Of a stretch of DNA of 64,000 bases, positions 1 through 24,699 are shown piece by piece. The position numbers were made by a program, and so were the translations under genes. The DNA comes from Chrysomallon squamiferum (taxonomy: Eukaryota; Animalia; Mollusca): the NCBI GenBank assembly GCA_012295275.1, contig CM022668.1:7130001-7194000 (forward strand), read 5' to 3'. The first letter of the stretch is position 1; each line of letters opens with the position of its first letter. The notes beneath the pieces are model-generated. The model was given only the letters and a program-made list of their open reading frames with translations. It had not been told where the DNA came from and made no database searches.

Positions 1-292
1 CTTTTCAGACAAATTTATAATGAAAATAAAATAAAATTTTAATACATCTTCTAGAAATATTTATCTTTCATACAGCATATAATACAAACTAAAATAATAC
101 CATTTATTTACAAATATTCACATAACCCTGTTTATCACTGGTATTCAAGTTCAAACAGTAAATATTCTTGCAATAAAAATTAAACATGACCAAACATTTA
201 CTATTATTAAAAAATTAATAACAAACATATATTCTACTTGAGAGAAAAACCTATGCCGTAGATATCCATTCGAGGTTTCTGCTAAAACTTAC

Positions 293-526
293 CCCGTAAG
301 ACCTCCACTATAAGTTCAAGGTTGTTAGTAAGCTTCTGGACCTGGTTGAAGTTGGCCACGGTGGTGATGGCAACGTACTGGTCGGGGTCCATCTGCGACT
401 GAAGGTAGGAGTCGTGGACGAGGTTTTCGCGAGAGAAGTAGTACTCGAGCTGATGTCGCAGCATCTGCCGCAACTGATCAGCTGGTATCGTGCCCTCGAG
501 TGGGCCTGTCCCATCCTCCGTCGACG
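293..526 (-). CDS. LARP4: LARP4/4B-family exon encoding the La motif (gene continues left of the window)
   Basis: Acceptor tttcag at 527-528 and donor G|GTAAG at 292. Phase 1/1 translation [77 protein letters not shown] carries the LARP4-type La motif (QLEY.FSRENL..D.YL.SQMD.DQYV.I.TVAN). Confidence 0.95.
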
Positions 527-2651
527 CTGAAATAATTAATTAAAAAAAACTTATTACATCAATATCTAACAACACCAGTGCATAACATCAACTGTTCTTA
601 CATTTCCTAAAAGTCATCCTTTCATGCATTTCTTGTACAGTATCAATTTTTATAAAAATAAGGCTGTTGATATTCCTTGTACAATATCGACATTTCTTTT
701 ACAGTATCAGTGTCTCTTGCATAATAGTAACAGAAAAATAATAACATCAGTGAAGGAAACTCATTATATCCACAGACATTATCAGTTTGGAGAGCAACAT
801 GTTCTTCACAAGTTTTTACTTGTAACATCTGAGGTTGAGGCTGGACTGGCCAAACAAGCACATTATTAGATAAGAGTATTTTGCATGCCCTCACCGCAGA
901 GCCAGTTATGTAACAAGTAATCTAGTAATATACTGTAACAGACACGATTCATTATAGGTTATTGATTTAAAAAAGTAAATAAACAGATAAAAGAATAATA
1001 AAGTGCAGCAGAGGTCATGCCACATGTTTCAAGTACATTTATTTAATCAGTAAGATGAATTACAATGAACTGAAGCTTGGTGGAATATTTTAATCGTATT
1101 TTAAATAATGTTTGAAATTCACATTAATCAATAAACTGCCTTCTTTTTTACAATTTCTGTTGCTTGGAGAAAGTGAAAACTCTCAGAAATTTTTATTTTT
1201 TATTTTTAAACATTTAAAAAAATAAATAAAAAAAAATAATAAAAAAAAATAAAAATAAGATATTAGTTCTGGATATTCAAGGATGAAATATAAACACCCC
1301 CTCCAAACTAACTATTAACAATTGTGAGTTAAACAGATGCTTAATAATTTTTATGGTAACAAGGTGTGGCATAATCAAACTGGTATTTTATTTAGGTTTT
1401 AATAAAAACAGCAACAATATCTGAATTTATGCAACTATAATTAACCTCCATTCATCAATTCTGGATTATGATGGCTCTAACATAATTTACTGTCTTTTTG
1501 TAAGAGAAAAGAAACATGCCATTTCTTCTATTCAAGCTGGTTAACAGCAAAGGAATTATAAATAAACAGACACAAGCACTTTAAAATTTGAGTTTTGTAA
1601 TGTACAGAAGTTTAAGCTGCAACAAATATCTTATAATTTTAATGGTACTGAACCACATCATAAATGTATTGGTATGAACGAACTATAGGCATGCTATAAA
1701 GATTTTATTTTATTCATAATACGAAAATCTTATTAAAACCTTTTTTTTTTTTTTTTAAACTGGCAGAAACACCAGTGGTATTCACCATATATGTTAACAA
1801 TGACAGATGCTATAAAACAAAGTACACAACTTCAGATTAAAACGTTTGACCATTAACAATAAAGTTTGCTATTATAAACAATTTGTTGTTGTTTTTTGGT
1901 TGAATATGTATGTGTCACAGCTGCGAGGTATCATGAATAAATACAACTATGAGTGAACTGTTCAATATTGAAATCAACAAAAATTAGTCATTCTGTTTCT
2001 GTTTCAATTCTGCATTTTGCATAATTCTGGAAGTTTATTTCATTAGTAATATGTTTGAAAGAATTTAAAAATATGGTACAATTTAATATTTATCAAAAGA
2101 ATAGATAAATAAAAAAAAATAAAAAAAAATAGACTGATAAATAATTAAACAATTAATTCTGGTCTTTTTCTGAAACTTTTTTGAATTATCTGAATCAGTA
2201 ATATGTCATAAAAAAATAAATGAATAAATAAATAAACCAATAAAACAATAAATAAAAAAAATAAAAAAAATAAATGAATGCTACGTTAAACCATGTTTAA
2301 TATTAACAGTTAAACTAGCCACCTGAAACAACGCCAGTGTGATCCATGCTTTTAGATGTTTCTCTAAATCTGTTAGCAAATTCTTACCACATTTAGAATA
2401 ATTGTCTAAACAGGCAGTTGACTGGCTGTTTTCTCTGGCACCAGTATGAAAAGTAATGTCCACAGATTAAAACATTACAGCAGACCTGATGCTTTTTAGA
2501 ATGATTTTAACAAATGAATGCTCTACAAAACTTCAGTAGAAAATTTACTCTTCTTCTGGTTATACTTTATTGTTAACAAAGATTGGACAGCAATGAACGG
2601 GAAGAAAATGTCATTAGGAAATACATGGAACTTGTTTAAAGATTCACTTAC

Positions 2652-2813
2652 TTGTTGAAGCATTGTCGTTAGGTGGTGCTGGTGAAGATGGCTGATTGTC
2701 AACGAAGACGGGGAGGTCGGCAACATCGCTGTTGGACAGCGGAGAGTCTGGGGTTGGAGGAATGACTGCAGCTGTGTGCACCTTCACGTCTCCATTTATC
2801 AGCTGACAGTCAA
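2652..2813 (-). CDS. LARP4: LARP4 exon, Pro/Ser-rich linker between PAM2 and La motif
   Basis: ttttcag acceptor (2814-2815) and GTAAGT donor (2651). 162 nt, phase 1/1, open frame DCQLINGDVKVHTAAVIPPTPDSPLSNSDVADLPVFVDNQPSSPAPPNDNAST; joins both neighbouring exons in frame. Confidence 0.85.
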
Positions 2814-2866
2814 CTGAAAACAGAGAGATGACTTGACTATGATGATGATTAATAATGACAGTAATG

Positions 2867-2923
<57 letters not shown>

Positions 2924-3504
2924 TATTTAAAGTGGACTAGATGTAATTATGTGATACAGGATAGGCCTGAGACACAGGTAATGGGGTCAATTGTCTTCAA
3001 AGGATCAATTGATTTATTTCCCATTAAAGTAATTTTTTTATGTAGAACATTTATAATCATGATAATAAACCAGCCAATAATTTAATTTAGTATATAAAAT
3101 GTAACATCAGTTTGAAGTTTCCTCAAATTTTAGAAAATCTTACTATATTATAATGAATTAAACAAAACAAAATTATAGTTTAAAAAAAAAAAAAAAAAAA
3201 AAAATAAACAATTTAAAAATTAATGAAAATAAAAATAAAATAAATTAAATTTTGAATATATGGTAATGAATTCAACAAAAAACAATAATAAAAAAAAAAA
3301 ATAAAAAGAAATAAAAAATAAAAAATCATAAAATTAATAATGAAAATTAAAATTAAAAAATTAATAAAATAATTAAGTAAACTTTATTTTCCGTATACTA
3401 CTTATTATTTTTTTTAAATGAACGGGTTTACCTATAATGTTGGTTAAGTAATTTATTTATTTATTTATTTTTAATATGGTTTATTTCAGTTCAGTGATGT
3501 TCTA

Positions 3505-3637
3505 GAATGTTTAAAACTAGTCAACAATGCCTGGTTCATGAGAAACCAGAAACATTCTGAGCCAGTTTCAAGTTAATGTTGCATTCAGCCCTTCTCTGAG
3601 GACCCATGGAAGTGGGCCAGCAGTACACAAGAATGCA
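3505..3637 (-). ncRNA. Box H/ACA snoRNA, copy A (predicted 18S Psi1692-equivalent guide, SNORA70-like function)
   Basis: Sense to LARP4. Hairpin GCATTC...GAATGC, H box ACATTA, second hairpin TGAAAC...GTTTTA, then ACA + 3 nt. Pocket strands TGTGTA and AAGGGC pair with 18S GCCCUU(Psi)G-UACACA, 14 nt from the H box. Confidence 0.88.
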
Positions 3638-3955
3638 GGTTTTATCAGTCTTAACCAAAAAATTTATTCTAATATAAAATTTACAAGTCTTTATTTTTAG
3701 AATTTAAAAGACTAAAAAACAAAAAGAAAAAAGAAAATAAAAGAGAACAAAAAAAGGTATTTATTATTAAAGCATCTACAAGTTTCACTAATACACCATG
3801 GCTGTTAATAATTTAAGGTCACAATACATTTTGATGGTCCATAAAAAAGGTTCAGTTTCTAAATGAAACTGATAGGTGAAACAAGTTTCCTCTCATTACA
3901 GAATCACAATAATAGTCCCTACAAAAATTAACAATACAAAACAAAAACACAGCTA

Positions 3956-4248
3956 CAGGTTGAGAATCCCTTATCTGAAGTTCGGAAATCCAAAACCTTT
4001 TCTAACAGCAAACATTCTGATATATTTCAGTTTTTAGATTGTTTTGCAAACACAAATTTTATTTTATGACTAAAATTATTCAAATCATTATATAAAAAAT
4101 CCTACAGATAATTTATATAAGCTGTTCATGAAACAAACATAATTTGTATTTAGTCTGAGACCCTATTCTAAGGCCCTATCATCAAAAATTCTAAAAATTC
4201 AGAAATGCTTCTGGTCCCAAGCATTTCAGATAAAAGACTGTCAATCTG
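3956..4248. mobile_element. Non-autonomous pogo/Tigger-type DNA transposon (MITE), Tigger4/Zombi-like
   Basis: TA target-site duplication on both sides and imperfect terminal inverted repeats CAGGTTGAGAATCCCTTATCTGAA ... TTCAGATAAAAGACTGTCAATCTG. The subterminal CTTCTGGTCCCAAGCATTTC matches Tigger4/MER46 as I recall it. Confidence 0.8.
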
Positions 4249-4920
4249 TAACATGGATATGATGCAATGAAAACAGTTTTATTTTACTTTCAACAAAAAT
4301 AACATCTGTCTGGTATTTCTAAATCATAAACATCAGACTAGACAATTTGTAATGTATTAAAATTTTATTTTCGCAGATAACCTGGCTGAATTTTTTTCTT
4401 CTTTTTAAAATAAATGTAATTAAAATAAATCATCCCCAGTACAACTGACAGGATTTTATTTAACAATGTAACAAAACACCTGTGTTTAAATGTCACAGTA
4501 TGTATCACACTACTTAAACATCTATTAAATCCTAGTAGCATTAATTGAATACAAGTTTGTTCAGTAATACAGCAACACAATGTGAACAGCCATAAAACCA
4601 TTTTATGCATATTTTTCATTTACCTGATAAAAAATAAAAATTCTGAACTTTCAGTATTAATAATTATTCAGCATTAATACAATGAACTAAGAAAAAAATG
4701 GTGTATTTTCAGTTGGTTACTCTTTATATGGATTAGCAAGAAAGAATATTTAAAGAACACCTTGCCATAGACAGAAAAAACATCTACACTAAGTTAAATT
4801 GGACTGAGTAAGGATTGGGATGAGAAATGGCCCAGTGCATATTCTGCATGTCAGTACTTACCAACAAGTTATAGCCAGTACTAAACTATTAAACAACATA
4901 TGTTTGTTAGTATCCAAGTT

Positions 4921-5059
4921 ACATGTTCCAAAAAGACAATACAACATACTGGTATACAAAGACCAGAATCAGATTTTGAAATTTTTATTTTGAAGTTAAT
5001 GTTGCATTCAGCCCTTCTCTGAGGACCCATGGAAGTGGGCCAGCAGTACACAAGAATGC
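4921..5059 (-). ncRNA. Box H/ACA snoRNA, copy B (most divergent 3' hairpin)
   Basis: Same 67-nt 5' hairpin/H-box module (4993-5059). The 3' hairpin TTCAAAA...CTGGT-loop-ACCAG...TTTTGGA is followed by ACA-TGT. Confidence 0.8.
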
Positions 5060-5146
5060 CGAAAATTTTATTATTAAAATATTTATATGTATACAAATTG
5101 ATTATTTTTTTTATATTACACTGGTGGTGGTGGTGGGGAAATAATA

Positions 5147-5198
<52 letters not shown>

Positions 5199-5469
5199 TT
5201 CAGGTTAGCCTGAAATTTCAAATTTACAGAATGATCATTCTCATGGTGTATCTTTTCTTTCTTTCATACTTTGTTCAAGTCACATTTAGTGTGACTGTAT
5301 ACTTTATCAGCATCAGTTGTATATACACAGAAAGATATACATTCAAGATTTCTTCGTGCTGATTGACAAGAGTGATCAAGTGCCAAAAGCCAGTTTCATA
5401 AGCAAACATATATCAACATCCAGATGGGTTGTTTTTTTTGTTCCAGATAAATAAAATTCAGTAACTTTA

Positions 5470-5601
5470 CGATGTCTGAAACCAATCAGCTATACCTGGT
5501 TTTTAGAAATCAGAAATAAACTGAGTTAGTTTCAAGTTAATGTTGCATTCAGCCCTTCTCTGAGGACCCATGGAAGTGGGCCAGCAGTACACAAGAATGC
5601 A
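5470..5601 (-). ncRNA. Box H/ACA snoRNA, copy C
   Basis: Identical 67-nt module (5534-5600); 3' hairpin TGAAAC...GTTTCA, then G, ACA + 3 nt; 132 nt. Confidence 0.9.
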
Positions 5602-5912
5602 GATAAAATTATAATTGAAATATTAAAAATTACTTTATTTTAATTAAAATATTTGCGTTGATAGTGTATAGGTATATATATATATATATAAAGAGGTAAA
5701 TTTATATAGAATGATCATTCTTTAGTACTTTGATTAAAAAGAAAAAATGTTTTATAAATTCCAAAATTGGACTGCATTAGTTTATATTTTTAGAGAGTTC
5801 AATACTATTTAACTGTTGTAGGACATTTCTTAATAGAATATTGTAATGAGTAACATTTATCATTTAAAATAAATATACATTATTTTTTTTTTTTCTGATG
5901 CTGCAAGAAAGC

Positions 5913-5957
<45 letters not shown>

Positions 5958-6356
5958 GCTTATTTATTTATTTATTTATTTATTTATTGTCATCTACACA
6001 TGTTGCATGTCTATGTTAGGTTGCTGGCCTTAGGCTAAGGCATTGTGTATCACTATATCAAATCCTGCCCATCAAGCTATTTAATGTCACTGTGCACATA
6101 TATACTTTATCAGTATCAGTAGCATGTCTACAGAGATATATGTGCAAAAGATTTCTTCACACTAACTGACTATATTAGACCAAGTGCCAAAAACCAGTTT
6201 CATCTATGTTTTACCATTTAACAAGCAAACATTTCAAATACCAACCATAATTAATATGAAAACATCTGTTGTCTATGAATAGTTACTAAGGACACTGCAG
6301 CTAATTGAAAATTCAAGATATTTTTATTTTTGTTTGTATGTCATTCAGCAACTTTA

Positions 6357-6488
6357 TGATGTCTGAAACCAATCAGCTATACCTGGTTTTTAGAAATCAG
6401 AAATAAACCGAGTCAGTTTCAAGTTAATGTTGCATTCAGCCCTTCTCTGAGGACCCATGGAAGTGGGCCAGCAGTACACAAGAATGCA
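6357..6488 (-). ncRNA. Box H/ACA snoRNA, copy D
   Basis: Identical 67-nt module (6421-6487). Its 3' hairpin differs from copy C by two A-U to G-U changes; ACA + 3 nt; 132 nt. Confidence 0.9.
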
Positions 6489-6675
6489 AAACAAATTTAG
6501 AAATCTCAACAAGTGAATTTCTCCTTAGCCATTTTAATCATCTACACTTTGCCTGTTTTTAAACTGAAATAAAATCTGAGAAATCTGACTTAATGTATTT
6601 AATACAGAGGTGTGATGTAACAAACATACTTCCTAATATTAGTAAAAACAAAAATTAAAAAATAAAACAACTTAC

Positions 6676-6805
6676 CAGCTTCACCATCTCCAATATCTGA
6701 CCCTGCGTTGTCCCACTGCTGTGATGTCGTAGAATCAGGCGATGTTGGAGATTTGCTTAGGAAGACGTTGGCATTAGGATTGAGGCCAGGGCTTTTGGGT
6801 GTGAC
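6676..6805 (-). CDS. LARP4: LARP4 exon with PAM2 (PABP-interacting) motif
   Basis: ttttag acceptor (6806-6807) and G|GTAAGT donor (6675). 130 nt, phase 0/1, VTPKSPGLNPNANVFLSKSPTSPDSTTSQQWDNAGSDIGDGEA; GLNPNANVF is a PAM2 motif. Confidence 0.92.
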
Positions 6806-8140
6806 CTAAAACACAGAATATAAAATAAATTTGAGACACAGAGAAATTGCAGAATATATAAATTGGATAATATATAAACAAATATAATCAAACAATTAAT
6901 AACCCATTGTGTAATTAAAAAATGATAGACATTTTAAAAGACATCTGTATTTCAGATTCAGATTTCTGGTAATCTTCCCAGCTACAGACAAAAAAAAAAA
7001 AAAAAAAAAATCCATATCCACACCCTTATATTCTGGGCATGTTAATCATTTTAAATAAAAACTGGGTTTGATAAAATTATTAACTGGAACTGCATAAATT
7101 TTAATTCAATATTTAAACAACTGGTTATGTAAACATTTTAAACATTGACCTTTGATTGGTATTTAAAATGTAAACACTGCTACATTTTATACACGAACTT
7201 TGTCATACAAACAACCCTTTGTTGTCTGGGGACATACATAAAAAAAAAAAAAAAAAAAAACCTCAACAACACTGAAGATTTTATAAATGCTACAGATAGA
7301 TAGAGAGACAGTCACAGAGACAGAGCGAGATGGGAACAGAAGACAAAAATCTATTTCCAATTCCAACTCTTTATCTATACAAAATTCCTTTATGTTAATC
7401 CATAAAAACATTTCACTCACTCCACCATCATACAAGCCACCAATAAATTATTGATGTATACTGAGATGCTAAATATTCACTTGATAACATCCCTATCTGG
7501 ATAGGTTTGTCAGAAACTAAGTTTAAAAATAAATAAAGAGTCTAAAAAAAGACTGATGCACCATACCAAAGCTGGCTTATTTTAATTTTCTCTGACAAAT
7601 AGCAAGATCTAATCATTCATGTGTTAAAGTCTTGAGCACACATGACGATGACTTTAACCTATCAGTATGTAAAGGTCTGGCCACTGCTATTTACAAAAAA
7701 TCTTATCACTTCGGTATTAGAAAGCTAGAGAGGAAAGTTGACTGAATTTATCAGTGACTGATGTACTTGCGTCAATGTGGCTTGATTTCAGTCTTGGGAA
7801 ATTACAGTAATCTAAGAAAAACATTTTTTTTTTTTTTTAAATTTGAAAATTCTGATCTTTTTGTTTTCATTTTCAGGTTGGATCTAGATAAAACATTATC
7901 TCAGAAAAAAGATGACACATGACTGATTCTTTTTTAAAGTGTCTTATTAATGCAGTCCACACAAACGCATACAGAGCTAGACAGACACACAGACAAAAAA
8001 TACATAATGTAAGCTTTAAATTGTTTTATAGGACGACCAAATGTTTTTTAAACGTGAAAGTTGTTGTTGCAGACATCAGCTGGTTTTTGGGCTGTCCTGT
8101 TGACATTCCATTTAAAAATATATATTAATTCAGTTTTAGT

Positions 8141-8238
8141 AAAAATAAAAATAAAAATAAAAATAAAAATAAAAATAAAAATAAAAATAAAAATAAAAAT
8201 AAAAATAAAAATAAAAATAAAAATAAAAATAAAAATAA
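8141..8238. repeat. (AAAATA)n hexanucleotide microsatellite
   Basis: Direct reading; source of the poly-KI ORF. Confidence 0.95.
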
Positions 8239-8659
8239 ATGGATAATGAAACCAAATAAAAATCAGGGGGAAAATAACCAGAACAATAAATTTTGATGCA
8301 ATAAAGAGTCAGCTGTTTCTATCTGGTATGAAAATCAGCAATATTTAGCTATTTATTAACTTAATTATTTATATCATTTTTACAGTTTGCATTTTCCTCT
8401 TATCTTTCATTCCAAATAATTTTATTAAACAGAAAACAGTAGCAATAAAGATATTTTCTGGTCATGGCCAAATGCATAAAATAACAGCAATATGGCATAT
8501 TACAGGTTATCTAAGTGTTAATGTTAAAATTAATTACCATATTTATTATAAAAAATACAGATCTCTTTAGCATTTCTATGTTAAATGGTTCTACTCATTT
8601 TAAGTATTGGTTCACTTAATCAAACATATCCCGTGCCAAGAAGTTAATCCACCCTCCTC

Positions 8660-9065
8660 TGGGCTTACTCCTGTAGATATTGAACAACATTTACAGTACA
8701 GATTAGTCCATCTACACTATATAGAGGCTCACAATATGAATGTTTGTTGCTTATTCCTTATGAAATATGGTACCAATATTGGCAACAAATTAATCTGCCT
8801 ACACAATACACATGTTCTGGGCTTATTCCTGATGATGAATGATACCAATATTTATAACAAATTAATCTACGTACAAAATACACATGTTCTGGGTTTATTC
8901 CTGATAAAGGATGGTACCAATATTTATAACAAATTAATCTACCTACACAGTACAGATGACACTGGCTTATTCCTAGTGAAGTACAGTACAAATATTCGTA
9001 ACAGATTAGTCTGCATACACAATATATGGTCTGGGTTTATTCCTTGTGAAGTACGGTACTAATAT
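8660..9065. repeat. 72-bp tandem minisatellite, about 5-6 degenerate units
   Basis: The TTATTCCT anchor recurs at 8751, 8823, 8895, 8967 and 9037, with a variant at 8665. Confidence 0.9.
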
Positions 9066-10427
9066 GTATAAGTAATTTATGACTAACTAAAGTACAGTGA
9101 CCTTCATCAGGGTCCATCTAGCACATCGTGTAATTTATGATAATGTATTCCTGCTTAGTTTGGATTAACCTTTCCAGTTTACGACTGTAACAATGAAAAT
9201 GATTGATAATTTGAGTAATGAATTATGAAACAACAACACCTCAGAACATTACGACTGAATGTTTTATGACATTTAACATATCTTAATAAATTGTTATAGC
9301 TAAAAAATGTGACTTGGCATTATGATGGAATGATGGGAACTAACCAGAGGGAACTAACCAGAGCTAACCAACCATAAGCTCTCTAAAATATGCAGCAAAG
9401 CATCTTCTACAAGCATCTTCCCATCAAAAATTCACAAAAGAAATGCCAAAAAACAGAAAAGCATTTTTTTTTTTTTATTTTTTTTACACACATGCACAGT
9501 GCTAGTAATTTATGTAAGTATTAATTTCTGGTAATCTGAATAAATATAGTCTGAGGTTTTGTATTTTTCAGGTATCTTTGTGGTGGACTGATATGATTAC
9601 TGTGAATATTAAATATGCCACTTATTTTTTGTAATAATTTATGTCTAAACATTTCAGTTTAAATAAATACATTTTGAGATTTTGTATTTTTCTAAAATAT
9701 TTTCGACTGACACTAAATATGGAAACCATTGATGTTCATTAAATATTATTTAAATTCTGTTCAGTTACCTCTCTTGTGTTTTAATTAAGTTTTAAAAGCA
9801 CTTATATTAATGTTGCCTTTTAAACTTTACTTTGTGCCATTCCGAGCTTTACTGGATGTAAGTAATTATAAATTAATTGGCAAGTAAATAACCAGAAAGT
9901 TTAGTAATAATAAAATTGTGTTTCTCTTTAGTATCACATATAAATGAATTTAACTGGAAATAAATAAAAGCCTTAAAATCAATTGATACTTTTTTTTTTT
10001 TTTTTTTTTAATATCAAGTTTTATATATAAAGCTTTATTTAAATTAACAGATGTAACATATGATCTATAATGGATAAAAGTTATAGCTTTCAAAAAAAAA
10101 ATTTCAAATAATAAAATTTGCAAATTTATACATGCATTTAACATAATAATAATAATATGAAGACTGGAATAAATGTAAATGAATACATGAAATATAAATA
10201 TATATATATATATATATATAAACTCTGCCAAAGCATAAAAATTAAAACTGAACGATATTTGATGCTGTGAACAGATAGAGATCTAACAACTTAAATGTAC
10301 ATTAAAACTGGAAAAATAAAAATTCAAAATGGTGAATCCAGGTGCAGTTTGTAAACAAACTAAGCGGACATTTCTGCTGCACAGTACAGGTAATACGGAG
10401 CACATGGTCAAGTCAGTGACGGGTTAC

Positions 10428-10484
10428 CGCGGTGACGAGAAAATCACGATGTTCAAACACTTGACAAGCCCTGCTTTCCGCCAT
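10428..10484 (-). CDS. LARP4: Candidate alternative first coding exon of LARP4 (MAESRACQVFEHRDFLVTA)
   Basis: AACATGGCGG start context, 19 codons, GCG|GTAACC donor in phase 0, inside a small CpG-retaining island (about 10330-10540). Confidence 0.4.
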
Positions 10485-11875
10485 GTTTACACAGAAAGCG
10501 TCTGTCCCATTACCAGCTCGTTTTCTTCATCTTCGGTTAATGTCAGAATTTTAAAAGAAAATTTTTAGTTTTGAAATTATACCTCTTTTTCTTGAAACCG
10601 ATACAAAAAACATTTAAAATTTTATTTATACATTTAATGTTTTATAAACCTTTATTATTGTTATTATTATTATTACTGTTATTATTATAAAAGTAATGTA
10701 ACCAATATTCCTAATTTCTAAAGTTTTTCTGAATAAATACAATCACACTTTCACATAAATTTACATCAGTTCTAGATGAGGTCCATGAATAAATTAAAAC
10801 ATTTTTATAATTTTAACTGAAACTACATGGCTCTGTAAAAAAAAAAAAAAAAAAAAAATTAAAAATATGTTGCTGTTATCAAAGAAAAATTATTAAAAAT
10901 ACAGTTTCATCACAAATGTTTTTTTTTAAATAAAAACTATAAATAACTAATAAAGAAGACATTTTCTTCTATGTTCTCTAAATGATAAACGCCAGTTTAA
11001 ATCACAAAAATAATCAGAAAATAATAAAAAAGATGAAAAAGAAAACAGGAAAATGAAATTGTAAATGTTTTCTTGTTAAAAAATACTGAGTGAATGAATG
11101 AATGAATGAAGAAATGAAGTAACATTCAGCTTAAACAGAAAATCCATTTAGTGTCAAAAGGTCACTAAACACCAGTATGAATACAATTTCAATTCTTTTA
11201 ATTTTATAATTAAAACTTCTTCCATGTTTGTGCTGTAATTTACAATTTTAAAAGTGAATCAGACATGCGTTTGTTTGATGATCTGGATCATTTAACATGT
11301 CAAGCAGTTATTCCTCTAACTTGACATTTCACACTTAAAAATCGTCAATGTTTATAATCAGATCATTATATACATTTATAAATACAAATAAATAAATAAA
11401 TAATAAAAATAGTAAATGGAGAAAAAGAGAAAACACACACAAACTCTTAATAAATGGGAAAATAAATCAATAAAACTTCCCAAACCCAAAGCACCTTACT
11501 GATTAGAGGATTTAAAATAATTCGGTTTCTTCTGCTCATAAATTACATTTCTGACAACTGAGAATGGATTACATGATAAAATATGTATCATTTTCATAAT
11601 AAATTGGAATAATGTCCTGACATTTCCTCCACACTTACAATAACAACAGCAAAAACATTAATAATAATAATAAATAAATAAATAATAAATATATAAATAA
11701 TGTAAAAACTGATAAAAAACAATTTTTAATAAATGAAAATAAAAAAAAACATTTTTTTAATTTTTTTTATCCATTGTGTTTTTAAGTATGAATCAGCAGT
11801 ATTTATATATAAATTAGAATTATATACATTTTTTTTTTTTGAAAGAAGAACAAATTCTTTTTTGGCCAAACTTAC

Positions 11876-11968
11876 CCTTTTTGCCTGATCTGTTTGTTGG
11901 CCCTGGCCTCGCTTAATGCAGAGTACACACGAATTAGCAGAATAGTAGTAAACATCACCGGGCAGCAT
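11876..11968 (-). CDS. LARP4: Candidate alternative first coding exon of LARP4 (MLPGDVYYYSANSCVLCIKRGQGQQTDQAKR)
   Basis: ATG at 11968, 31 codons, strong AGG|GTAAGT donor in phase 0, inside a CpG-retaining island. An upstream acceptor (poly-T...ctgtag, 12184-12185) and donor (CAA|GTGAGT, 12380) suggest a non-coding leader exon. Confidence 0.55.
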
Positions 11969-12935
11969 GTAGGTGCCCACACCACCAAATTTCCAGTGAT
12001 CTGGGGTATCTACCTACCTACCCTGCCACAGTAAAAGCATACCATATGGTTGATTTGTGCCAGAAGAAAATGTCAGCTGTCCAGATGGGTTACACCAGCA
12101 GCAAAACTCTTCCGTAATGAAGTAAAATACACATTGTTAAGTGCTGTTGATGATTCAGATTGAGAGAAAAGTATCGTCTGTCCCTACAGAGGAATTGACA
12201 AAAAAAAAAAAAAAAGGAAAAAAAAAACCCAGCCTGAACGTTGTGCCTGCCGATGCAATGACAGACTGCAAACGGAATGAGCTGTTGACGACTTCTCCGA
12301 GCACACAGCCCACACACTCTGGCGAGATACGTCTGCTTACCGATACCTAATCCAGAACAACACGGCAGCTCACGACTCACTTGAAACCTACTGTCAACAG
12401 CTGTCAACGTTTTAAACAGTCCTCTCCTCAACCCAGTCTTAAGTAACCCCTGACAAGATGAGCAGGAGGAGGAAGACAAACGAATAATCAAGCTAATTTT
12501 ACACACAACACACTCGACGTGTATTTTTAACGATACTTAGTGGCGTGTGTCCTCCCCCATCTATTTTTCTGCTAATCGATTGTCCTCAAACTGCGCTCAT
12601 GCGTGAAACACCTGTCAGATTACAATCAATAGATAACTGGGTGGCTCATCGGGTCATAAACACCTCTTCCCGTGCTAGCACTTCTCTCGCTATTTACCAA
12701 CAGTAAATATCATTCAGTTGCCTTCATTCAGTGACGATGCGAACAGGCCAGTCGGTCTTCAGCACTGCTACCACATACAACGTAAACACACACGTCTACA
12801 ACGGCTGGGTCTGCAGCATCATTCCTACATCTCTGTGTTTCCATGCTCTTTTTTCTTAATTGCCTTTTCACTGCTTATTCACAACCACCTCACACAGACC
12901 ACCACAGTGGACAGCAGATGCAGACACGGCTAGTC

Positions 12936-12949
12936 GTTGCTATGGAAAT
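12936..12949. promoter_or_regulatory. RFX X-box-like motif upstream of the candidate internal LARP4 promoter
   Basis: GTTGCTATGGAAAT, one mismatch from the X-box consensus GTTNCYATRGNAAC, at the edge of the 11900-12950 CpG-retaining island. Confidence 0.4.
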
Positions 12950-13012
12950 TTCCACATGAAGAAGGTGGGTGGAAGAAATTAAGAGAAAATGAATCTGTAA
13001 CAGAAATAGACT

Positions 13013-13045
<33 letters not shown>

Positions 13046-14033
13046 CAGTGAGTGAACTGAAAATCTAGCAAGCTTTTACCCTCGAGTCATGGCTCAAGAC
13101 AATGTCGAATCAGTCACTGACCATTCTGCTTTATTTCTCATCACTTCTGTTGTTAATTTTGTAACAAGCACTGCCATATGGTGATTCACACAGACCACAA
13201 AAATCAATACCTTACATGCAACAACTATATATTCATAATAACAAAGTATCTAAAAACCTCTATCACATACACATACCAACAAAAAAAGGAAACTTCTCTA
13301 AATACACTGATTTAAAAATATTTTTTTTTTTTATCAATAACATTATTTTTCCAACTCAACCTTTGACCTCATTGTGTTTAGAAAGTCTTGCTGAAGCTGA
13401 TCAATACTGTGCGAGTTCAAAGCCAGGTATGTCTTTCAGTTCTATTTGTAGTATCAATAGCACATTGCACAATGGCTTGATCTGTCATTTTTATATGAAG
13501 GACACGGTCAGACAAGTGTGACATACTGAGCACACCTTACAGGTAGAAATAAAATGATAAAAGAAATTTTATTTAAAAATTGTTTGAAGTTATTTGATTT
13601 TGGGACTAATGCAGAAAAAATGTCAAATTTAAAATTGCAAAAAATAGTTTAAAACTTTTTGACAAAATTCAGTCCAGGTAATTTCTCAACTAGAAAACAT
13701 TTAAAAACATAACTAAAATACTGTCATTAAGAATCAAGCAAGATAAAAAAAATCACACCAAAAAACTGCATTTATTTCCTAACATAGTTAGCTTAGAATC
13801 AGCCTTTATGTTAGTTATTTCCTATTTAAAAGAAAAACAAAATTAATGGAAGTAAACAAAACATCTTAAAAAATCACATTTCAGTATTTAGTAATGTCTC
13901 ATGTTTGAAAAGTGAATATAACAGATATTGTGGTTGTCTGCCACCATTTTCAAATAAAAACTTGTCTAAAATTTGTTTTAACTTCGTGATTATCCATGTT
14001 TTATATGTGTGTGTGAGTGGGTAAGCAAGTGTA

Positions 14034-21712: not shown

Positions 21713-24699
21713 AGTGTGTATACACACTCATATATACACACACATACATACGTACAGAGACATACACACATATATACGCATACATACATTATATGCACAC
21801 ACACACACACATATATATATGCATATATACATTATGTATGTACGTAAATCAAAGAAATACTGAACTAGGGTTATAACGTGTATTATTTCATACAGCAAAG
21901 TTCATTTTGTTCTTTTAATGTCGAAGTATTCAGTGATTTTTCTTGTTTATATATTTATACATGTGGCAGGGTTTTTTAATACAAGTATATTAATTTTACA
22001 AATTAACAAAATCCGATTAGTGCATTTTATGTGTAATATTGTATGTAAATTTTATAAAGAAACCAGAATATGGCAATTAACTCATGTCTTCCATATTTAG
22101 CAGAAGTGAAGAAAACCTGTTTAAAAAGGATGATTCAATATTTAACAAACAAATGCATTTTGATGAAAATGTACTGTTGCTTTTCATTTTAGTTTCTGAA
22201 AATTAAAAGATTAAGAAGACTTCAGTGATCTACATGTCTATTTTACAATCTAGGAAGCTCACCTGAGATTTAAAAAAAAAGAATTGGACAACTGAATAGG
22301 TTATCTTTCTCTTTGTTTACTGGGATTAAAAGCTTTTTACGCTATTTATTACATATATTTATATATATATATATATATATTTTTTTTTTTTACAAAATAT
22401 AAAGTATAGCAACAGATGTGAAACCAAATGTCCAAAATGCATCTACATTATATACCAAGTTGAAAAAGATCCATTTCATCTCATTAGAATTACATCTATA
22501 ACAGTATGTACATAAATTACGTATGTAAATTTTAAACAAAATAATGTTTTTAAACTTGTGACTGATCTTTTCTCGTAACAAAATTCAGCAGGTAATGCAA
22601 CAATTCAATGAAACAAAATACTCAACACTTCCCTATTCTCTCTAGAGTTATTGTCAAAATTAGTACAAAATTCCTTATAACTCGATGATTTCATGTTAAA
22701 CGCTGATAAATAAATAATAACTATGGCATGAATCAGTTTCACTTTTATAGAAGATATCTGTAAGACTTTCATTAACTGACATTTTTTCTTCCTTTTTTTT
22801 GACAAACTGATTTTAAACCAATCTAAACATGATAAAACTATCCTGATGTATGCATGTCCCTTTTTGCTTTCAAATATCAGCAATATCAAAATTAACATGA
22901 ATTTCATTTCAATTCATCAGAAGTAAGAAATGCATTAGAAGTAAACACTTCGAAATGGAAATATTATGAATCAACATGGATGTGTTTATATTACTGGTAG
23001 TTGGGGGTGGGGGTGGTTGGGAGAAGGAAAAGAAGAAAAGCACTGAATATTAACACATAGTGTATAAACACATTTTAAAATTTTCTGAAAATGTACATGT
23101 TTAAAGACATTTGTCCATTACTGGCCTAAATTTCAAATTATCGTCTTATTTTTTTAAAATTCAAAATTAGACAGAAGTTCACATTTGAATTATAATTTGT
23201 ATCATTTTCCTTCTTTTATTCTTGGCATGTTCATAGTTATGTCAACTCAAGCTGATAGAAAATTACTGACAGAACATCAGTATTACTTCTTGAAATGATA
23301 TGATCATGAGTATCTGCATGTTTATAACATTCATTCCACAGTAACCAATGTGATTTACTGAAGTGTAAAACTAAAAGCATTATATTACTACTGCTTTTTT
23401 TCTTCGTATTATCACTTTATAATCATAACATATTTCAAATTAAAGGTTTTTGGATACAAATGACACTTTTAAAATCAACATATCAACAAATAAAAACAAA
23501 TAAATTATTTAAAAAATGTCATTAAACAAAACACTGCTTTCTTTTTTTAAATTACATTTTTAAAAAAGAAAGAAAAAAAGAATATTTTAATAAATGATAA
23601 ACTAAACAAATGAAAACCAACATACCAATTAATTTACTTTCACTTTCATTTTCCTGATTGTAAAGCAAGCTGACCTTCACCATTTGTTTGTACTTTAAGT
23701 ACTGGCCTGACAGTCAACGAATTACTAGTTCAATTTTCCTCAGAGTGCCATGTTACAATTTAGTAACATTTTCTCATTCCCATTTCATTATACAAAAAAT
23801 ATATATCTTAAAGCATAATTTATGAATATTAAAATGTATGACTGATATTTAATACATGGATATTAAAACATGACTGACTCTTAATAATATTAAATTGATT
23901 TAATGGATTCCCTTGCTACTGATAAAAAAGAATCGACCAAGTAGCATCAACTAGTTTCTTCATCCATGTAAAAAAAATATGACAAGACTTTATAATTTAT
24001 TAACTTATTGGTGTCCAGAAAAATAATTACCATATTTAATGTTCGTTTCTAAAATATTTGTAATACAACCTGTACAAGACAACAGAAAGATTAGTCTGGC
24101 ACTGTCATTTAAATTTTAAAATATTTAAAAAATAAAAATATATGTATCCTACTTTGTTATGTTTCTTTAATACTTGTAACTATTTAGTACATAAATACAC
24201 ACACACATATAAGACAAACATGTACACACACACACACATACACACACACAAAATGATACTAGGTAAACAGCTGTTATGGATATACTCATTTCCTTAAAAT
24301 ATTCACATTTAATGCAAACAGATTACCAGTATACACATGTACACAACAATTACAATATTAGGTAAAATAACTGCCATGAAAACAAACTGATCTCCTTAAA
24401 GTACTCAGTATCTAATTATTTTCACAAATAATATTAACAGATTATCAATATTTCCTTACATCTAAAATATCCTCCCATCCTTTACAACAGCATTTTAGTA
24501 TTTGGCATCAAAATATTGTGTAGCCTTAGTGATGACAAACTAATGCAATAAATAAAATATCCCAGTCTCACAACACATCCCCTTAGCAACAGTTTTACTT
24601 CAATATTACCACTAGTTATAAATAATTAAAAAATTGTGTAGAAATTTGAAATTGTTTATGTATTTCAGTACCCTATAAAACAGTAATAAAATACATATC

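Follow-up and report, generated by a model that had tools for sequence, protein, structure and literature searches.

The window analysed here is a 64,000-nt stretch of Chrysomallon squamiferum DNA, and a LARP4 gene is encoded on its minus strand. The La-motif exon of this gene (293..526, minus strand) matched Pfam La with an E-value of 1.2e-22. Its best PDB matches were human LARP4, and the best of its 94 database matches was the LARP4-like protein of Haliotis cracherodii (86% identity). The La motif, the PDB matches and the Haliotis match agree, which supports the host gene named in a preliminary description of this DNA. The exon 6676..6805 (minus strand) encodes an LNPNA motif that is common to mollusc LARP4 proteins; we take this motif to be PAM2-like, and Pfam gave no match for it in this exon. 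The exon 6676..6805 and the following exon, 2652..2813 (minus strand), have canonical splice sites; their junction keeps the reading frame, which runs on into the La-motif exon.

The intron between these two exons (2814..6675, minus strand; 3,862 nt, GT-AG, phase 1) contains four H/ACA-type units, designated c1 to c4 in the direction of transcription. The distance from the donor to c1 is 187 nt, the three spacers are 755, 409 and 1,283 nt, and c4 is followed by 691 nt up to the acceptor. A hidden coding exon within the intron was ruled out by the in-frame join and by the protein spacing: the region from W to NGD comprises 15 residues here versus 14 in a chiton, 11 in abalone and 10 in Lingula. 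In addition, all seven candidate cryptic exons of non-zero length had stops in the host phase. No consensus donor was found between c1 and c2 or between c2 and c3. Units c1 to c3 therefore lie in one intron, and c4 does so too unless a candidate splice site at 4624, considered below, is used. With an in-frame join and no room for a hidden exon, all four units stand between the exons 6676-6805 and 2652-2813, as had been proposed.

Several further features of this gene were recorded. An upstream LARP4 coding exon (11903-11968, minus strand) encodes a Cys- and Tyr-rich start of 22 residues, 21 of which are identical in Littorina and Nucella proteins. A Haliotis protein also matches this start, and the Patella, chiton and Lingula entries begin otherwise; the differing starts suggest alternative first exons. 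An upstream LARP4 intron contains a 72-nt minisatellite at 8749-9071 (4.5 copies, 79% matches), and positions 8140-8239 are a perfect hexamer run of 16.7 copies. A search for C/D guides in positions 1-13300 found six 11-mers complementary to rRNA, none of which was followed by a D box.

Units c1 (6357..6488, minus strand) and c2 (5470..5601, minus strand) are each 132 nt long and differ from each other at two positions, both in the 3' hairpin. Unit c3 (4921..5060, minus strand) has 140 nt, or 139 nt without its first base, and c4 (3505..3637, minus strand) has 133 nt. The four sense H/ACA units of the preliminary description were thus present at the places given there. In c1, the pocket strands are 6475-6480 and 6439-6444, the H box is 6425-6430 and the ACA is 6360-6362, all on the minus strand. 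A 20-nt probe matched the window exactly four times, as did a gapped pattern combining the pocket and the H box, compared with a mean of 0.00 matches for each in 100 shuffles. A profile of the four copies found no fifth copy in the 64-kb window, and its next match had an E-value of 1.6. An assembly artefact is unlikely, since the flanks and the 3' halves differ between the copies. At the gathering level, Rfam gave no match in the whole 64 kb. At E ≤ 10, there were nine weak matches in positions 2600-6900, none of them close to threshold. The best sub-threshold matches on c1, c2 and c4 were H/ACA families, and those to SNORA56 and SNORA14 are read only as an H/ACA-like shape.

The H box ACATTA, which fits ANANNA, lies in the hinge at unit positions 59-64 in all four copies. 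The ACA directly follows the basal stem in four of four copies, 3 nt from the end, where the unit 3' ends were set by the rule of ACA plus 3 nt and not from mapped ends. The consensus fold of the copies consists of two hairpins with a single-stranded hinge between them. The MFE folds of c1, c2 and c4 show the order hairpin-hinge-hairpin-tail (z = -1.97, -3.70 and -3.26, respectively). Unit c3 has another lowest-energy fold (z = -0.99), in which the H box is buried; the two-hairpin fold of c3 is only suboptimal, at -26.8 versus -32.1 kcal/mol, which is 5.3 kcal/mol worse. Unit c3 has the identical 5' hairpin and a compensated 7-bp basal stem, together with a weak and strongly diverged 3' hairpin that alone folds no better than shuffles (z +0.41). 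The preliminary description had assigned the anatomy hairpin-H box-hairpin-ACA to each unit; this holds for c1, c2 and c4, but c3 is structurally weaker and departs from it in its MFE fold. The most stable 3' hairpin is that of c4 (-22.5 kcal/mol, z -5.05). It is a rod of about 60 nt (3507-3572, minus strand) with almost complete pairing, and one could speculate that it is a substrate for small-RNA processing. The CAB box of H/ACA scaRNAs is UGAG, and it is absent from the apical loops in the folds of the four units.

Comparison of the copies with one another separated the two halves of the unit. In the 5' part (positions 2-68), there were no differences at 67 positions in any of the six pairs of copies, whereas the 3' parts of the six pairs showed 2, 15, 15, 26, 26 and 28 differences per 59 positions. 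This contrast was significant in five of the six pairs (Fisher p ≤ 4e-6). In the MAFFT alignment of the copies, 95% of the cells were paired, versus 33-47% when slid. Two-sided changes were found at 6 of 40 base pairs of this alignment. As the four copies compared are related, and the structure was itself derived from them, these figures are suggestive and not a probability. The box-anchored basal stem keeps its first seven pairs intact (7/7) in all four copies. Two pairs of the c3 basal stem have changed on both sides and two on one side; of 105 permutations of the c3 basal strand, only two pair fully. As judged from the sequences, the retention of the basal stem points to selection on the H/ACA structure, c3 included. 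The 3' hairpin likely serves as a protein-binding scaffold only; this would account for its compensated drift and for the absence of drift in the guide hairpin. The sharing of flanks is mosaic: c1 and c2 share sequence downstream, and c2 and c3 share sequence upstream. Given that the 5' identity includes the apical loop and that flank sharing is mosaic, gene conversion is also suggested. The perfect identity of the 5' halves is thus likely a consequence of selection together with gene conversion between neighbours.

The 5' pocket strands, UGUGUA and AAGGGC, are exact complements of the 18S stretch GCCCUU-U-G-UACACA. They form 6+6 Watson-Crick pairs, with UG left unpaired at a distance of 14 nt from the H box, so that the computed pairing is the one anticipated in the preliminary description; 14 nt is the canonical pocket distance according to the available text of PMC2150573. 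The target rRNAs were metagenome stand-ins and not those of this animal, and were picked by the 18S 14-mer itself (106 loci; 77 of the 107 14-mer matches were in 18S context). The rRNAs were delimited by Rfam in six loci, and the target scan covered the three sets with complete 18S, 5.8S and 28S. The 14-mer is present in these sets by construction; what is tested is the chance of so good a pocket match. In all three rRNA sets, the best 5'-pocket target was the third U of the 18S run, and other sites scored at most 9. With fixed geometry, none of 2,000 random pockets formed as many as 12 pairs. In a looser search, with free geometry and G-U pairs allowed, 14 of 300 shuffled hairpins equalled the real pocket. 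The 5' pocket also has an alternative 12-bp register (5+7, 13 nt) on the neighbouring second U, one U upstream. The pocket is framed by an upper-stem register whose stability is 3 kcal/mol below that of its alternative (-15.3 vs. -18.3). As for the 3' pocket, no target recurred across the three rRNA sets, and a closed stem takes up the position 14 nt from the ACA in c1, c2 and c4. An 11+3 match of the c1/c2 3' strand, 14 nt from the ACA, to position 233 of the L029 18S was rejected, as it occurred in one of the three rRNA sets and involves stem-locked bases.

In human 18S, the SNORA70 site is 1692, and the 18S part of the bridging oligo for Psi1692 starts with the G that immediately follows the third U (available sections of PMC9610020). 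This oligo position confirms the earlier proposal that the target U is human 18S Psi1692, guided by SNORA70 from the host gene RPL10. According to excerpts of two further papers, Psi1692 belongs to helix 28, where neck and head of the subunit meet (PMC10227372), and U1692 is assigned to SNORA64, not SNORA70 (PMC7760958). In Drosophila, all three consecutive U's are reported to be modified, and the site is called the first of the three in the available text of PMC2150573, as opposed to the third U to which the 5' pocket points here. The modelled pairing predicts that the 5' pocket, which is identical in all copies, guides pseudouridylation at the 18S U equivalent to human 1692, and we regard this as likely.

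A second repeat accompanies two of the units. Its copies, a1 (6101..6203, minus strand; downstream of c1) and a2 (5298..5399, minus strand; downstream of c2), are 77% identical over 105 nt, and the sequence surrounding them barely aligns. Each is followed by a hairpin ending close to an ACA. Neither a canonical H box nor a convincing target was found for a1 and a2, and they fold no better than shuffles. Copy a2 alone had one 12-point match to 28S, with two G-U pairs and no box. The second repeat may represent another small RNA, degenerate or orphan, from a cassette of two genes, or a mere residue of duplication. A weak third match to it was seen at 23912-23962 (E=0.02).

We consider it probable that c1 to c4 are four locally duplicated copies of one RNA that likely mature as snoRNAs. 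According to established H/ACA biology, the copies would be transcribed with the LARP4 pre-mRNA, and dyskerin, NOP10 and NHP2 would be loaded onto the two boxes of each unit. After debranching, trimming of the lariat would proceed inwards from both ends and stop at c1 and c4. The available part of PMC11028025 describes H/ACA assembly during transcription as well as splicing, debranching and trimming of the ends. Internal cuts would also be needed, because end trimming alone cannot open three spacers; cuts in the three spacers, together with trimming, would free each copy. The extra copies would raise the guide dose per LARP4 transcript. Spacer hairpins as cleavage signals were considered and set aside, since windows with z < -2.2 occur in the 3' flank as well as in every spacer.

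Alternatively, the copies may be bound by H/ACA proteins and remain uncut, giving an RNA of about 3 kb (3505-6488) capped by c1 and c4, or only some of them may mature while c3 decays. The long spacers (409-1,283 nt) and the weak 3' hairpin of c3 are consistent with this, and in vertebrates two snoRNAs in one intron give rise to sno-lncRNAs, among which SLERT is H/ACA-ended (available text of PMC11028025). Human SLERT resembles the present locus in having more than one H/ACA RNA within a piece excised as one intron. According to the same excerpts, however, SLERT contains two different snoRNAs, originates by exon skipping and is human-specific, and a long product at the present locus is a possibility only. 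Moreover, the internal units c2 and c3 keep their boxes, pocket and basal stem, as expected of individual guides, and the multi-copy intronic clusters of Drosophila are listed as individual snoRNAs in the accessible part of PMC11028025. We therefore consider an uncut or partly maturing RNA rather unlikely. A more elaborate form of this idea is a multivalent mollusc sno-lncRNA. It would be a stable RNA of about 3 kb with four tandem H/ACA particles, or a c1-c3 piece that recursive splicing has separated from c4. All particles would share one 18S target, and their guide hairpin would have originated, or been exchanged, independently of SNORA70. We regard this form as unlikely.

Part of the separation could also be done by splicing itself, if c4 is parted from c1-c3 at 4624 by a recursive site or by a small exon that contains a stop. 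The candidate recursive splice site (4618..4641, minus strand) consists of a pyrimidine tract (12/15) followed by a CAG/GTAAAT junction at 4624/4623; it could instead be the end of a putative 63-nt stop-containing exon (4624-4686). There are two consensus donors between c3 and c4, one at 4623 and a perfect G/GTAAGT at 4856-4862 (minus strand). Only two sites of the recursive type are present on the whole minus strand of the window and none on its plus strand. Such a site appeared in 32 of 2,000 local shuffles, but the site was found after the fact, and the shuffling disrupts T runs and thereby understates chance. Furthermore, a recursive site at 4624 cannot restore one snoRNA per lariat, because no consensus donor separates c1, c2 and c3. 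A contribution of splicing at 4624 to the release of the units is thus improbable.

It is very improbable that the unit is a dispersed snoRNA-derived repeat and that the four copies are inert insertions. A precedent for dispersal is known from the platypus, in which one H/ACA RNA has spread to about 40,000 copies (available text of PMC11028025). Here, however, all four copies in 64 kb are in one intron, on the same strand and at full length. They have no poly(A) tail, and no target-site duplication was seen locally; the flank words they share are AT-rich 7-8-mers present in only two of the four copies, and the divergence among them tracks the structure. Finally, we give hardly any credence to the idea that the units are H/ACA guides whose true target is another uridine, be it a neighbouring 18S U, an snRNA or another RNA: the 13-nt register, the modification of all three Drosophila U's (as excerpted from PMC2150573) and a target scan confined to rRNAs leave room for it, but the main register has the canonical distance, its third U is the mapped human site (PMC9610020, in part) and the next-best targets score at most 9.

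With these alternatives weighed, the four copies are a real and likely functional intronic H/ACA cluster. An intronic snoRNA cluster is defined in the available text of PMC11028025 as snoRNAs in one shared host intron, and here at least c1 to c3 lie in one intron, sense to the host. The supplement of that paper, as far as available, classes many Drosophila H/ACA paralog sets as intronic clusters, often of 4-10. The sets include Psi28S-3405a-d in Hrb98DE, Psi28S-1192a-d and 1135a-f in RpS5a, Psi18S-525a-j and 640a-g in Arpc2, and Psi18S-1347a-b in pAbp (PMC11028025, same portion). Drosophila intronic H/ACA clusters are also the title topic of Huang et al. 2004, as it appears in the reference list of PMC5932544. 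The multi-snoRNA intron had been singled out as notable. Such introns are indeed known from Drosophila, but the surprise was overstated, since at least four paralogs per intron are routine there, to judge from the same supplement. In those clusters, as here, a protein-coding gene, in many cases one for translation or RNA binding, houses several copies of one H/ACA guide in one of its introns. The differences are that the present cluster belongs to a mollusc and has another host and another predicted guide.

The proposed equivalents of the predicted guide differ from it in several respects. SNORA70/U70 (RF00156, from an RPL10 intron) shares the predicted target uridine. In the available part of PMC4914119, its target is numbered 18S-1694 and given under the second (3') element, and the first element is assigned to 18S-1232, whereas the 5' pocket is used here. 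In zebrafish, SNORA70 is listed as single in its intron (available supplement of PMC11028025). Membership of the SNORA70 family was rejected, as there was no RF00156 match up to E=10 and the opposite pocket is used. Drosophila snoH1, or snoRNA:Psi18S-1820, is likewise an invertebrate H/ACA RNA, and has been proposed as the U70 equivalent on the same uridine run (PMC2150573, in part). However, snoH1 is single-copy and mono-intronic, in the dyskerin host gene Nop60B (mfl) (available text of PMC11028025). Its figure legend boxes the terminal ACA, implying the 3' pocket, and the comparison is by that description (PMC2150573, in part).

LARP4 as a snoRNA host is not new. Human LARP4 hosts SNORD133/SCARNA97 (PMC6601510) and the H/ACA entry snoDB1437 (PMC11028025), according to the available parts of these papers. 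SNORD133 is a C/D guide for tRNA-Met from LARP4 intron 10, and both human entries are mono-intronic in these sources. In the literature outside most subscription papers, we found no report of mollusc intronic snoRNA clusters, of this RNA or of snoRNA release by recursive splicing.

The four-copy intronic arrangement is already known from Drosophila, and the present locus is a new example, in a mollusc. The cluster leaves the knowledge of snoRNA function unchanged. It carries the Drosophila type of intronic H/ACA cluster over to a mollusc and adds a putative guide RNA that Rfam-based annotation would miss. Because the copies share the 5' half, have distinguishable 3' halves and are separated by long spacers, the locus is well suited to studies of how several H/ACA RNAs are released from one animal intron. 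Our observations suggest that molluscs use another hairpin and another host for the same 18S mark than vertebrates and flies do.
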